Under the pieces are notes generated by a model. That model saw nothing but the letters and a program-made list of their open reading frames with translations, did not search any database and had not been told where the DNA came from. Made by a program: the position numbers and the translations under genes. Below are positions 2,754 through 45,412 of a stretch of 49,742 bases of DNA, piece after piece (the first letter of the stretch is position 1; each line of letters opens with the position of its first letter). Source of the stretch: a virus (taxonomy: Duplodnaviria > Heunggongvirae > Uroviricota > Caudoviricetes). Where the stretch lies: the IMG/VR virus record IMGVR_UViG_3300024348_000010; one strand, 5' to 3'.

Positions 2754-4463
2754 TTAATATCCCATTGCTAACCAGTAACCAGTGTGAGAAGTTTCATCTC
2801 CGTTAAACCAACTGAAACCAGTTGTTGATACACTATAAATGGTTGCGCCTTTAGAAGCCTGTCCAAATACACCCAGATCTCCTACTCCATTCATCACTGC
2901 TCGACCGACTGTAGTAAATGATGTTGGGAACGTTCCAGATCCTGTAGTATTCGGAGTAACAGTTACTGTTCCCCACTGAATAATTGCTCCGTTTGGCAAC
3001 TTAGTCCAGCCATTTGATGACAGACTTTGTGTATATCCCGTAGTTCCTGCCGTATCGATCCAGATATCACCAGCAGCAGAAGCAGTAGGTGTAGAACCTG
3101 TTACGAAAACTTGACCACCACTTGTAAATCCAGCTGTAACGTGTCTGAGAATAGGAGCTACGGCACCAGATGCACTTCCTTGTGCACCTTGTGGTCCTTG
3201 AGCACCCGTTGAACCTGCCGCGCCTTGAGCACCAGTTGCACCTTGTGCTCCGTTTATTCCAGTTGGTCCTTGCGAACCAGTTGCACCTTGAGCGCCTTGT
3301 AATCCTTGAGCACCTTGAGGACCAGCAACTGAAGATGCTGCACCTTGTGCACCTGTAAGACCTTGCGGACCAGTTGGTCCTTGTGGTCCTTGAGCTCCAG
3401 TAGCGCCTTGAGGACCGGCAACGGTTGAAGCAGCACCTTGTGCACCAGTTGTTCCTTGTGGTCCTTGTGGTCCTTGAATACCTTGTGCACCTTGTGGTCC
3501 CGTCGGTCCTTGAACCGAAGGTCCTTGTGGTCCTTGAGAACCAGTTGTTCCCTGTGGACCCTGGGAACCAGTTATTCCTTGCGCGCCTTGTGGACCAGGA
3601 ACTGTCGAAGCTGCGCCTTGAGCACCAGTTGGTCCTTGCGAACCAGTTGCACCTTGAGAGCCTTGAGCACCAGTTGCGCCTTGCGCACCTTGAGGTCCAG
3701 CAAGTTGCGTCCACACCAAGTTAGCTGTCGCTCCACTTGATGCAAGAACGAAACCTGTTGTTCCAGCAGATTGTGTAGGTAGAAGGTTATTGATCGATCC
3801 GCCTGTACCGCCTCGAGATGTAGGAAGTGTACCGACAGTAATAGCAGATGCATCAACAAATACGCCTGCTGCGTTCACAGTTAAACCAGCATTCGCTACG
3901 AAACTAATCGTCGGATTTCCAGAAACCCCGTCGCCGTTTGTTACGCTAATGCCGTTCGTAGAAGCAATCGATACCGTATTACCTGTTCCTGTACCAGTTC
4001 TGACTACGATACCATTCGCCGAGATATTATATACGGTGTTAGCATTGCTTGCTGTACCAGTATAAAGTGACGAGTTAACGCCTGCTCCACTTGGAAAGTT
4101 AACAGTATTCGTAACGGTGATATTGTTTGCAAAGACATCGAATCTTGCCGTGGTAGTACCGAGTGCGCCGCCGTTTGCATCTGGTCGTAGTGTTCCATAA
4201 GATGTCGTATTAAATACGAAAGCATTGAAACGGTTTGAAGTATTACCGAGTGGCTGCTGATCTGCAATCAGAAGAACCCCGCCTTGACCGATGGTAACGT
4301 TGGCGTATACAAGAGAACCATTTACTACAAGGTTACCAGATACAACAAACAAGTCGTTTTTAAAGTGCGCGTTGGCTTCTACGTCGACACGATCATAGAA
4401 GATCGCGTTGCCAGAAGCAACTAGACCGTTATCAACCTTAAATCTATTATTTGCGCCTGACAT
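2754..4463 (-). CDS. Collagen-like tail fibre protein with gp53-like C-terminal tip domain
   Basis: 569 aa with about 174 aa of Gly-X-Y repeats. C-terminal [15 protein letters not shown]...TFPTSF...GFSW...YWLAMGY motif typical of fibre tips. Confidence 0.85.
3177..3698 (-). repeat. Collagen-like Gly-X-Y coding repeat
   Basis: [15 protein letters not shown] triplets, interrupted three times by GAAS(T/S)V(P/A)GP and once by GPSVQGP. Confidence 0.95.
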
Positions 4464-40705: not shown

Positions 40706-41280
40706 CCTCTATAAAAAATGTGTGCACCAATCTTAGTCGTACGAGCAAACACTCTACCCCATGACGGACTTACGTAGTCAGCGTGGTAAAACTTTGCTCC
40801 CTTTGTTACGTCACCGTAATTTCCGAGATACACATGTTCGGCGATTTCCCTTGCTTTTGCAAAGGCTACACCATCACGAATTCTTTTTCCACCCTCACAC
40901 TTCCATGAAAATTGGCATACGCGCGCAGTTCTCTGATTGATAACTCCACATGGCGTGCTTGGGAAACGATCGTCTTTTGCGCGGTTCAAAACAACATTGT
41001 TTACCGCAATCCTACCTTTATAAGGTTCATGGCCAGCTTCGAAGTATGTATTCTCGGCCATGCATTGGATTTGTTTTTTGTCGTAGTTGCTCAGATAGAC
41101 TGGCTTCTTTACGACCTTTTCTTTTTCGATTACCTGAATAACTGGGACCTTTACGATCTTGACTTCAGGTTCTTTGTTTGGTGTAGCCAAAGCCACACCT
41201 GTTACTGCAATGATACCTATGACAAAGCCTTCGGCCCAGCGTAGATACGGGAAATCTTTTCTAGTTTCGAAAAGTTTCAT
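40702..41280 (-). CDS. Cell wall hydrolase, SleB/Hydrolase_2 family, with N-terminal hydrophobic anchor
   Basis: CMAENTYFEA..EP..G.IAV..VVLNR...FP.T.CGVI.Q...CQFSW...GAKFYHADYVSPSW...IGAHIFY. N-terminal WAEGFVIGIIAVTGVALA. RBS AGAGG. Confidence 0.92.
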   Translation of the reverse strand: MKLFETRKDFPYLRWAEGFVIGIIAVTGVALATPNKEPEVKIVKVPVIQVIEKEKVVKKPVYLSNYDKKQIQCMAENTYFEAGHEPYKGRIAVNNVVLNRAKDDRFPSTPCGVINQRTARVCQFSWKCEGGKRIRDGVAFAKAREIAEHVYLGNYGDVTKGAKFYHADYVSPSWGRVFARTTKIGAHIFYRG

Positions 41281-41284
41281 GTTC

Positions 41285-41530
41285 TTCCTCTTAGTCTCAA
41301 TGACTTTGGCAAACAGAGACTACTTTACAGGCATCCCAGCCATATAGTTTTCTGCCGCTATAAGAAGATACACAAGAGAATAACGAAGTATCTTCCATCC
41401 ATTTCCCTCTTACTGGAAATGCAAAATCATTAGTGTTTTCGTCGGTGGCATCCGAATGATGCCGCTTTCTAGCCATCTAAGACTTGAAGTTTTGCAAGAG
41501 TCAATGGAGGATTCTAACCTCCGTCGTGAT
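41285..41530 (-). ncRNA. Candidate structured RNA or long 5' leader
   Basis: No credible ORF. At least five hairpins lie between a late promoter and the SleB gene. Confidence 0.4.
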
Positions 41531-41534
41531 ATTT

Positions 41535-41542
41535 TATTTATA
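41535..41542 (-). promoter_or_regulatory. T4-type late promoter TATAAATA
   Basis: Exact motif between the tmRNA 3' hairpins and the structured region. Confidence 0.8.
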
Positions 41543-41597
41543 CTACCGCCAGCAGTTTTTCTGGCGACTCGTAGCACCAGTCATTCAACTGGTAGTA

Positions 41598-41911
41598 AGT
41601 GGCCCGTTCTGTTCCAAGGTGGAGCCATACCCGTGTAGATCATGCCGCTAGGCGGATATCTGCAAAGCTATCGTTATCGTTAGCATTTATGTTTAGTGGC
41701 ACTTTGCCAAGCAATCAGTCTCAAACCGCCCTATTACACGAAAATCGAATTCCATAGTCACCCCCATCATGGACACACGTTGCGCAACTCAGTCAATCTG
41801 TCGTGACATTACATCCTGTGCAATGTGGTTGAAAGACTGTGTGTCCATGGTGGAGGTGCGGGGAGTCGAACCCCGGTCTTTCCGCCTTTATTGTTGATTG
41901 TCAACAACTGA
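41598..41911 (-). ncRNA. ssrA: Circularly permuted two-piece tmRNA (alphaproteobacterial type); outer ends approximate
   Basis: The acceptor piece ends GACCGGGGTTCGACTCCCCGCACCTCCACCA (CCA end at 41848). After an 82-nt spacer, the coding piece starts GGGGGTG at 41765. GGGGGUG pairs with CACCUCC, giving G3-U70 and discriminator A. Tag frame ANDNDSFADIRLAA*, then an AACAGA-containing pseudoknot-like element. Confidence 0.95.
41640..41684 (-). other. tmRNA tag reading frame (A)ANDNDSFADIRLAA*
   Basis: Resume codon GCT preceded by ATAAAT. Sequence GCT AAC GAT AAC GAT AGC TTT GCA GAT ATC CGC CTA GCG GCA TGA. Confidence 0.95.
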
Positions 41912-41916
41912 TATTC

Positions 41917-41947
41917 TATTTATACCCCAACGGGCTTTAATTGTACA
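41917..41947 (-). promoter_or_regulatory. Composite tmRNA promoter: TGTACA-N17-TATAAA overlapping late TATAAATA
   Basis: TGTACA at 41947-41942, 17-nt spacer, TATAAATA at 41924-41917. The upstream TAAGCATGTACA matches the TAAACATGTACA of three early promoters. Confidence 0.75.
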
Positions 41948-41950
41948 TGC

Positions 41951-42388
41951 TTAATTGCACCAAGATTGCTTTGCATCACCAAAATATGCACGTGCAAAAC
42001 CATTCTTGATGAGAAGGTCTCGAAGGCTCATGCCATCAAGGAGAATATCTCCAAGAACACGTCCACCGAACTTATCCCAATCGTACAGAACAACCTGATG
42101 CTTCTTTGTAGATTTGATTACCAAATTGGTGAATTCACTAGATTGTTCGCCACGCTTCTTCTCGCTCTCACACTTGGCACGAAAGCTCTTTTCAGGTGTA
42201 TCGACACCAAAGATTCGAACACCAAGTTCAGGCTTTAGAGGAGCTGGCAGATACGGTGCGGTAATGACGATCGTATCACCATCAATCGCACGAACAATGG
42301 TAGTGTCATATGTCACACCTGTAGGTGTCTTCTGTGCAATAGCTGGAGTTGCCAGCAACACGAGTGCTAGCGCAATAAAATTTTTCAT
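41951..42388 (-). CDS. Thermonuclease (SNase) family protein with signal peptide-like N-terminus
   Basis: RAIDGDTI...VRIFGVDTPE...DKFGGRVLGDI...LIKNGFARAY, and a hydrophobic N-terminus MKNFIALALVLLATPAIA. Confidence 0.88.
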   Translation of the reverse strand: MKNFIALALVLLATPAIAQKTPTGVTYDTTIVRAIDGDTIVITAPYLPAPLKPELGVRIFGVDTPEKSFRAKCESEKKRGEQSSEFTNLVIKSTKKHQVVLYDWDKFGGRVLGDILLDGMSLRDLLIKNGFARAYFGDAKQSWCN

Positions 42389-42398
42389 GTATTATTCC

Positions 42399-42749
42399 TT
42401 AGTTACAACGGGTTTCCCAATAAACGTAGCGTTCGCCACGATACCATTCGGTGATTTGTTCACGAACGCAATAGCGTCTATCATATCTATAATCTGGTGG
42501 ATAGTAGCGATTATCGTCGCGCGGCTCATAATCTCTTTCTCGCTCACGATCCCTCTCGCGATCGCGATTACCTGAGCTGAGAGCACCAACTACAACACCA
42601 CCGATGATAGCGCCGCAAAGCCAGCCACAGCCAGCTTTACGACGCTCTTGCTGGACATGGTCGCGATTTCGATCTCGACGATGATCAGCAAAGGCAGGAG
42701 TAGAGATTAGCATACTACCGACAACTAAAGATGCAATTAATTTTTTCAT
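42399..42749 (-). CDS. Hypothetical exported protein with glycine-zipper segment
   Basis: Signal peptide (...STPAFA), GAIIGGVVVGAL segment and an R/D-rich region. Confidence 0.7.
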   Translation of the reverse strand: MKKLIASLVVGSMLISTPAFADHRRDRNRDHVQQERRKAGCGWLCGAIIGGVVVGALSSGNRDRERDRERERDYEPRDDNRYYPPDYRYDRRYCVREQITEWYRGERYVYWETRCN

Positions 42750-44743: not shown

Positions 44744-44772
44744 ATTCTACCATAGAATGGCCTATTTGTACA
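44744..44772 (-). promoter_or_regulatory. Early sigma70-type promoter
   Basis: TAAACA-TGTACA-N17-TAGAAT upstream of DUF932. Confidence 0.75.
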
Positions 44773-44951: not shown

Positions 44952-44980
44952 ACCTTACCAAAGTTTTGATAAAATGTACA
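44952..44980 (-). promoter_or_regulatory. Early sigma70-type promoter
   Basis: TAAACA-TGTACA-N17-TAAGGT-GGACCTATAATGAAGAAGGA. Confidence 0.75.
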
Positions 44981-45383: not shown

Positions 45384-45412
45384 ACCTTACATTGTTTTCG
45401 AAATATTGTACA
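45384..45412 (-). promoter_or_regulatory. Early sigma70-type promoter
   Basis: TAAACA-TGTACA-N17-TAAGGT-GGACCTATAATCAAGAAGGA, near-identical to the copy at 44952-44980. Confidence 0.75.

Follow-up and report, generated by a model that had tools for sequence, protein, structure and literature searches.

A phage-borne, circularly permuted two-piece tmRNA gene and its mosaic structure among related viruses

A permuted tmRNA gene in the viral genome

The viral record IMGVR_UViG_3300024348_000010 of IMG/VR (Duplodnaviria; Heunggongvirae; Uroviricota; Caudoviricetes) is a DNA stretch of 49,742 nucleotides (nt), which is referred to here as the window. A preliminary description, made from the letters alone, had placed a phage-encoded, circularly permuted two-piece transfer-messenger RNA (tmRNA, gene ssrA) with a degradation tag at positions 41598-41911. 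Our analysis confirmed that 41912-41598 on the minus strand is a genuine phage-borne, alpha-type circularly permuted (two-piece) tmRNA gene with an intact degradation tag, and the interval first proposed agrees with the transcript body within one base. ARAGORN called the permuted tmRNA (41549-41943, minus strand, tag ANDNDSFADIRLAA*) as the single RNA gene in the 49.7-kb window. The covariance search that had been proposed as a check gave a match to the Rfam family RF04321 (tmRNA_permuted) at 41640-41909 on the minus strand; it scored 90.3 bits (E = 3.7e-16), where 47 is the gathering score, and covered model positions 1-213 of 213. The permuted order can be read directly, since the CCA at 41850-41848 precedes GGGGGUG at 41765-41759 on the minus strand, and ARAGORN flags the permutation. 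The second model that had been suggested, RF01849 (alpha_tmRNA), gave a divided answer: in a permissive Rfam scan it was the best family of its clan at 41598-41951 (minus strand), but its 48.1 bits fell 2 short of the gathering score of 50.

Comparisons with relatives refer to a lineage sample of 80 viral loci, collected through the adjacent hydrolase gene, the products of which are 71-100% identical to that of the window. Retention of the tmRNA gene was counted in the 66 loci with at least 1 kb of upstream sequence, and its elements were counted in 58 parsed genes. The parts of the gene in the window are as follows.

41848-41912, minus strand: acceptor piece, about 65 nt (RF04321 alignment and pair counts)
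41912-41906, minus strand: P2-distal strand AUCAGUU, paired with GACUGAU at 41720-41714
41908-41890, minus strand: 5' hairpin of the acceptor piece (RF04321 alignment and pair counts)
41885-41879, minus strand: P2a strand GCGGAAA, paired with UUUUCGU at 41744-41738
41875-41859, minus strand: T-arm CGGGG-UUCGACU-CCCCG of the acceptor piece
41858-41852, minus strand: acceptor 3' strand CACCUCC, followed by the discriminator A (41851) and the encoded CCA (41850-41848)
41766-41847, minus strand: intervening spacer of 82 nt, predicted to be excised, with no open reading frame (ORF); unalignable among near-identical relatives
41847-41839 with 41778-41770, minus strand: closing stem of the spacer, UGGACACAC with GUGUGUCCA; the leader UGAU (41769-41766) stands before G1
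41598-41765, minus strand: coding piece, about 168 nt (Rfam alignments; conservation among relatives stops at GGGCCA, about 41600)
41765-41759, minus strand: acceptor 5' strand GGGGGUG, a 7-pair stem with CACCUCC that includes G3-U70; the D-loop analogue is also in the coding piece
41744-41738 and 41720-41714, minus strand: P2a strand UUUUCGU and P2-distal strand GACUGAU of the coding piece
41709-41697, minus strand: pre-resume hairpin of the coding piece
41640-41684, minus strand: tag frame ANDNDSFADIRLAA, with GCU at 41684-41682, 14 codons and UGA at 41642-41640 (ARAGORN)
41600-41633, minus strand: H-type pseudoknot, with S1 formed by GGGU (41632-41629) and ACCU (41620-41617) and S2 by UGGCUC (41627-41622) and GGGCCA (41605-41600)
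41613-41607, minus strand: AACAGAA within the pseudoknot loop AACAGAAC, which aligns with the 3' end of the alpha_tmRNA consensus
41547-41593, minus strand: two trailing hairpins, ACCAGU/ACUGGU and CGCCAG/CUGGCG, with no U-tract and with compensatory changes in relatives

The hallmarks named in the preliminary description were thus recovered. The T-arm and CCA come first, the acceptor GGGGGUG/CACCUCC-A-CCA with G3-U70 forms 7 pairs, both inter-piece pairings (UUUUCGU with GCGGAAA and GACUGAU with AUCAGUU) could be located, and the resume context AUAAAU-GCU as well as the ANDN start and LAA end of the tag are present. The 3' element that had been termed AACAGA and pseudoknot-like proved to be AACAGAA, the loop of the H-type pseudoknot at 41633-41600. 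The 4-pair P2b helix of the RF04321 alignment was rejected for the window, where two of its four pairs are non-standard and the local 5' hairpin fits better; this hairpin is retained in relatives through G-U wobble changes.

The trailing hairpins, which occur in relatives as the compensatory variants CCAGCUG..CAGCUGG and CACCAG..CUGGUG, are possibly a 3' trailer or a structure for processing or stability. They probably lie outside the mature RNA because one relative, L280, is without them. At their place L280 carries a 173-codon gene for a 2OG-Fe(II) oxygenase-like protein (L280:2170-2691; phrog_61, E = 4e-08).

Conservation of the gene and its elements

The tmRNA gene was found at the same place in 65 of the 66 related contigs, and such retention almost without exception argues for strong selection in nature. 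The only member of this set without the gene is L306 (IMG/VR 3300020049_001793), which is, by its alignment, a natural deletion or replacement variant: its homology with the window starts exactly at a second copy of the promoter element TATAAATA (41542). The lineage is abundant in metagenomes, with a relative of the hydrolase on 151 viral contigs and 2,317 proteins matching the hydrolase at E <= 1e-10.

The comparison established that the gene is present, how it folds and that it is conserved, with each of its elements under purifying selection. Identity to the nearest relatives is 95-100% over the mature parts, and the spacer cannot be aligned. Double changes in the T-arm exchange C-G with G-C and G-C with A-U, pair 6 of the acceptor stem swaps U-A for C-G, and G3-U70 is invariant (58 of 58). 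The discriminator A and the CCA after it (ACCA) are encoded in the gene. The pseudoknot was found in 13 versions comprising nine S2 and seven S1 helices, all of them complementary, around the invariant loop AACAGAA, and further compensated variants of the pseudoknot occur across unrelated phage tmRNAs. The tag frame of relatives shows a synonymous change from CUA to UUA and length variants of 3n; the variant tags, among them ANDNVAFALAA, ANDNNAYEGLALAA and AANDN..., all begin with (A)ANDN and end with LAA. This synonymous and in-frame variation indicates that the frame is read as codons.

The spacer is conserved in a different manner. The 58 parsed genes hold 34 distinct spacers of 5-471 nt, 33 of which are closed by a stem. 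All 33 spacers longer than 20 nt possess a closing stem of 6-13 base pairs, which reaches from 0-1 nt after the CCA to 4-5 nt (usually UGAU) before the first G, and at least 15 different stem sequences were seen, all paired. Free sequence and length combined with a kept closing stem are what would be expected of an excised segment that counts for its structure only. In L284 (L284:333-758) and L322 a homing-endonuclease gene lies inside a 471-nt spacer, and in L278 such a gene stands just downstream of the tmRNA (L278:1443-1892, minus strand). These genes match phrog_655 (E = 1.8e-11 for L284/L322 and 2.7e-15 for the other), with weak HNH and NUMOD3 signals. The 133-134-nt spacer of L126 and L045 contains a Shine-Dalgarno site, an ATG and a cysteine-rich ORF of about 41 codons with the pattern CxC ... 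CCGxC, for which no Pfam match was found.

Exchange of the tRNA-like domain

The tRNA-like domain of the window has the T-loop UUCGACU and the D-loop analogue UGGAAUUCGAU, not the alpha consensus GGCgGUA and AGGAUCGAC. A GGCAGUA T-loop, together with the D-loop analogue AGGAUCGAC, is present in Methylophilales phage Melnitz, the T4-like phage of an OM43 bacterium whose two-piece tmRNA was described together with those of pelagimyophages by Buchholz et al. in 2022 (PMC9004378), and in many sister phages of the window, including L280 and L283; among these are phages that have the flanks and the tag of the window. The low alpha_tmRNA score of the window is accounted for by its long spacer together with this non-alpha-typical domain. 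L346, which has the same T-arm, the same tag and a 28-nt spacer, scored 60.4 bits, over the threshold, and sister phages with an alpha-type domain scored 77-108 bits.

We compared the window with L280, the hydrolase of which is 93% identical to that of the window. Identity of the two tmRNA genes reaches 100% over the promoter and the first bases and 97-100% between the resume context and the end of the pseudoknot, and drops in between, to 73-74% in the halves of the tRNA-like domain and to 57% in the spacer. The differences in the inter-piece helix are compensatory, with GCGGAAA/UUUUCGU in one version and GUU(U)GGAG/CUUCGAC in the other. Across the lineage both T-loop types were found with both main tag types (counts of 31, 6, 3 and 5), and since all four combinations exist, recombination must have taken place within the gene. 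The same reassortment is seen for pseudoknots, pre-resume hairpins and spacers. The gene is a mosaic, with independent recombination of the whole tRNA-like domain, the spacer, the tag and the pseudoknot. The lineage holds at least two co-adapted cassettes, UUCGACU with GCGGAAA/UUUUCGU and GGCAGUA with GUUCYGAG/CUGGRAC.

The permuted order sets the two halves of the domain side by side around the spacer, so that one recombination patch moves the whole domain along with its internal pairings, and a cassette of this kind is our favoured explanation of whole-domain exchange. Co-conversion of flanking sequence during endonuclease homing is well known in T4-like phages. It would be a sufficient driver here, and its link with the endonucleases found in and beside the spacer is one that we infer. 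A wider reading, which we offer tentatively and hold to be rather doubtful, is that the exchange of cassettes would be driven by spacer-resident or adjacent homing endonucleases through co-conversion of their flanks and maintained by selection. The versions would then fit the SmpB, alanyl-tRNA synthetase (AlaRS) or RNase P of different hosts, or would evade a factor, from the host or from a rival phage, that targets the tRNA-like domain.

The promoter

Two elements are found upstream of the acceptor piece.

41942-41947, minus strand: -35-like hexamer TGTACA, 17 nt upstream of the -10 element, at a position conserved in the lineage
41917-41924, minus strand: -10 element TATAAATA, the same as the T4-type late-promoter motif, 6 nt before CAGUUG

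At the -35 position TGTACA is present in 38 of the 58 lineage members and TTGACA or TTGACT in 19, and the -10 position is taken by TATAAATA in 32 and by TATATATA in 25, at a fixed distance from CAGUUG. With a start about 7 nt downstream of TATAAATA, the first base transcribed would be the first paired one of the acceptor piece. The window contains six copies of TATAAATA, where 2.4 would be expected, all intergenic and co-oriented with the genes. The second copy (41542-41535) starts the next unit, and the -35-like hexamer is found only at the tmRNA copy, the other five being without it. The conserved unit looks like a host-sigma-70-type promoter with a -10 element that doubles as a late motif. 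A reading as a pure T4 late promoter was dropped in view of the conserved hexamer 17 nt upstream and of TATATATA in about half of the relatives. A promoter consensus scan called nothing at 41917-41947. The corresponding elements of Melnitz are TTGACA-17-TATAAATA, and the ssrA promoter of that phage was termed early by its authors (PMC9004378). Melnitz has a glutamine riboswitch just downstream of ssrA, whereas none was detectable at the window locus: the glnA-type glutamine riboswitch gave no match at E up to 1 within 40900-42600, and the idea of a Melnitz-like riboswitch beside ssrA was dropped.

A recurrent intergenic block, AAACATGTACA ... GGTAAGGTGGACCTATAAT, stands before several genes of the replication region (44767-44772, 44975-44980 and 45407-45412, minus-strand sense), and the CATGTACA part of it is present at the -35 position of the tmRNA promoter (41942-41947). 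This block is probably an early or middle promoter signature of the phage.

Proposed function

We consider it likely that the gene gives a working rescue RNA, which would use the RNase P, AlaRS, SmpB, EF-Tu and ClpXP-type proteases of the host. The transcription start, processing, charging, use of SmpB, tagging and benefit set out below are drawn by analogy from the two-piece tmRNA of Caulobacter, reportedly described by Keiler, Shapiro and Williams in 2000. A single precursor would be transcribed from the promoter at 41947-41917, with a start near 41912. In this precursor GGGGGUG (41765-41759) would pair with CACCUCC (41858-41852), and the stem-closed hairpin of the 82-nt spacer would stack on the acceptor stem. 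A cut by host RNase P before G41765 and trimming to the encoded CCA at 41848 by host 3' processing would yield two pieces, of about 65 nt (acceptor) and about 168 nt (coding), joined by the acceptor stem and two further helices. The RNA would be charged with alanine by the host AlaRS, through G3-U70 and the discriminator A, and delivered by host SmpB and EF-Tu to ribosomes stalled on broken mRNAs. Translation would resume at GCU 41684, add ANDNDSFADIRLAA and stop at UGA, and the tagged protein would pass to ClpXP-type proteases of the host. The benefit for the phage would be that ribosomes and amino acids are kept available while the host chromosome and the transcription of host ssrA are shut down and mRNAs are cut. 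Both roles put forward in the preliminary description, rescue after decay of host mRNA and the countering of defence RNases, are possible.

Several points weigh against a phage-borne alpha-type rescue RNA. In addition to the RF01849 score below its threshold, the absence of the gene from L306 means that it is dispensable at least sometimes, and the promoter sequence would be compatible with early, late or constant expression, so that the timing cannot be read from it. Neither SmpB nor an integrase gave a match among the window ORFs tested, as the preliminary description had already stated for smpB, and PF01668 (SmpB) is likewise missing in the nearest viral record (G001) and in two complete genomes, those of Ruegeria phage RpAliso and Pelagibacter phage HTVC008M. 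Since the phage appears to be without an SmpB of its own, the function of the tmRNA would depend on that of the host.

A phage without SmpB must compete for that of the host, and this would also suit an RNA that binds host SmpB or ribosomes and blocks or redirects host trans-translation, comparable to the RNA of mycobacteriophage DS6A, which consists of a tRNA-like domain only. Phage tmRNAs of this reduced kind exist, and a similar molecule inhibits tmRNA (PMC4131195, PMC11915505). However, the gene in the window retains a full mRNA-like domain with resume codon, 14-codon frame, stop and LAA end, and the tag varies in a frame-preserving manner beside a compensated 3' pseudoknot, so that we regard a decoy or inhibitor as unlikely.

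Slightly less probable still is a neutral passenger, that is, a host ssrA that was captured recently, or what is left of an integration site, without use to the phage. Integration often occurs at tmRNA genes, fragments of which are found in prophages (PMC9004378), and one relative, L306, does without the gene. Against this, the gene is complete, no integrase was found among the ORFs of the window and the phage is T4-like; moreover, 65 of 66 relatives retain the gene, the distant HTVC008M has it at the same place, compensatory changes are numerous and the promoter is conserved. Neither synteny nor conservation supports a recent capture from a bacterium.

To the same small degree one might suppose that the gene is real but chiefly of value for its spacer, as a safe slot in which small genes or homing endonucleases are expressed or land, with rescue being secondary: spacers of relatives range from 5 to 471 nt and some contain ORFs (the homing endonuclease of L284/L322 and the cysteine-rich micro-ORF of L126/L045), but the 82-nt spacer of the window has no ORF, relatives with a 5-nt spacer keep the whole tmRNA intact, and the mature parts are the most conserved.

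For ribosome rescue by phage-borne RNA, the reading that we prefer, we know of no study that has shown the timing, the charging or the tagged targets of the RNA. The natural variants of the lineage, with two tRNA-like domains, several tags, spacers of 5-471 nt and one natural loss, are material for testing the match to the host.

Comparison with known phage and bacterial tmRNAs

Phage genes of this kind have been known since 2022, and the present additions are modest: the exchange of domains, a catalogue of natural variants and a conserved promoter. ARAGORN had detected 53 two-piece tmRNAs among 18,146 phage genomes, 50 of them aquatic (PMC9004378), and the 2025 tmRNA database holds 79 phage sequences (PMC11915505). 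Knowledge of one-piece phage tmRNAs goes back to the Bxz1 group of mycobacteriophages (PMC4131195). A search for permuted ssrA in phages, which the preliminary description had recommended, gave RF04321 scores of 129.5 bits for RpAliso, 113.4 for Melnitz, 93.6 for Pelagibacter phage Mosig and 90.6 for HTVC008M; no match to this family was found in Cr30, phiM12 or C48C1. When IMG/VR was scanned with a pattern of the T-arm and acceptor region, about 45 further permuted tmRNAs were detected on viral contigs. The expectation that annotation misses such genes was borne out by the GenBank records OR257569.1 (RpAliso; tmRNA at 2895-3116) and KC465899.1 (HTVC008M; 145161-145370), which have no RNA feature for their permuted tmRNAs. 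ORF callers put false genes over the tmRNA, and in HTVC008M a hypothetical coding sequence (144891-145181) overlaps its start.

The tmRNA of HTVC008M stands in the order PhoH, hypothetical, exonuclease, hypothetical, tmRNA, two hypotheticals and gp33. The window likewise has PhoH and an exonuclease upstream and gp33 downstream of ssrA, and this common neighbourhood indicates that the gene is probably old in this phage group and not a recent capture. Melnitz, HTVC008M and Mosig resemble the window in being T4-like phages with a permuted gene matching RF04321. The Melnitz/HTVC008M group also shares the stem-closed spacer, the AACAGAA loop, the layout TTGACA/TGTACA-17-TATAAATA and the lack of an SmpB gene, and the curli module typical of HTVC008M and Melnitz was found in another part of the window's genome. 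The T-loops differ (UUCGACU in the window, GGCAGUA in Melnitz and UGCAAUA in HTVC008M), as does the tag of the window from those of Melnitz, HTVC008M and Mosig. In addition, the window, unlike this group, has a cell-wall hydrolase gene and a small ORF between ssrA and gp33, and the structural proteins are only 33-37% identical.

With the alphaproteobacterial two-piece tmRNA (RF01849) the window shares the order of parts, the 5' hairpin, the two inter-piece helices, the ANDN start of the tag, the resume context and the terminal AACAGAA pseudoknot, and sister phages exceed the threshold of this family at 60-108 bits. The window differs in that its gene is viral, two P2 sub-helices of the model are missing, and the T-loop and D-loop analogue are of a generic bacterial type. 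The mycobacteriophages of the Bxz1 group and Bacillus phage G are, like the phage of the window, large lytic phages with an ssrA of their own and without SmpB. Their gene is an unpermuted, one-piece one and their hosts are unrelated; the RNA of DS6A is without a tag frame (PMC4131195).

The phage, its host and neighbouring genes

By its gene content the window is a T4-like myovirus. PHROGs and Pfam matches include a gp6-like baseplate wedge protein (phrog_219, E = 1.7e-158), gp25, gp53, a gp5 OB domain, the tail tube and tail fibres. Phages of the T4 type are known to be strictly lytic. The nearest cultured phages, according to gp6, are Caulobacter phage Cr30 (37%), Sinorhizobium phage phiM12 (35%) and Pelagibacter phage HTVC008M (33%). 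Upstream of the tmRNA the order on the minus strand is RNase H, PhoH, PD-(D/E)XK exonuclease, DUF932 protein and SNase-like nuclease, and downstream of it a 59-codon ORF, the Hydrolase_2 cell-wall hydrolase, the gp33 late-transcription coactivator, gp59 and gp32.

The alpha-type architecture and the hosts of the nearest phages point to Alphaproteobacteria, without naming the host itself. The preliminary description had gone further and taken the permuted form to identify the host class. This claim did not stand, because Melnitz has an alpha-type tmRNA and infects a gammaproteobacterial OM43 methylotroph (PMC9004378), so that the permuted form is no safe guide to host class; the tRNA-like domain of the window is, in addition, not alpha-typical. 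The 31-mer of T-arm and acceptor was also tried as a guide to the host and rejected as uninformative, since its matches were one-piece tmRNAs scattered over many unrelated phyla (Actinomarina, Acidobacteriota, Thermoanaerobacterium and others).

A one-piece tmRNA with the tag AKQPMALAA was observed in the genome of L141 (G002), the record of which bears the title Boseongicola sp. MAG. The 401 genomes filed in the same class as G002 were searched by BLAST, and the hits were one-piece tmRNAs tagged AKPKLALAA, from genomes of about 1 Mb and 33% G+C. The class is accordingly not Alphaproteobacteria, and this search carries no information on alphaproteobacterial hosts. The name of the G002 record is at odds with its class, most of the best-matching class-mates having about 1 Mb, 33% G+C and the tag AKPKLALAA.

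Some minor features were seen on either side of the tmRNA gene. Just after the second TATAAATA a T-arm-like hairpin, GGAGG-UUAGAAU-CCUCC (41506-41522, minus strand), opens a stretch of about 250 nt before the hydrolase gene. Relatives have the hairpin too, L060 for example in the form GGAGGUUGAAAUCCUCC, and neither ARAGORN nor Rfam made a call at 41506-41522. The 59-codon ORF (41297-41476) lies in the same stretch and gave no family match. Directly upstream of the tmRNA, the SNase-like nuclease (41951-42388, minus strand) has a hydrophobic, signal-peptide-like N-terminus, MKNFIALALVLLATPAIAQ, which suggests that the protein may be exported.

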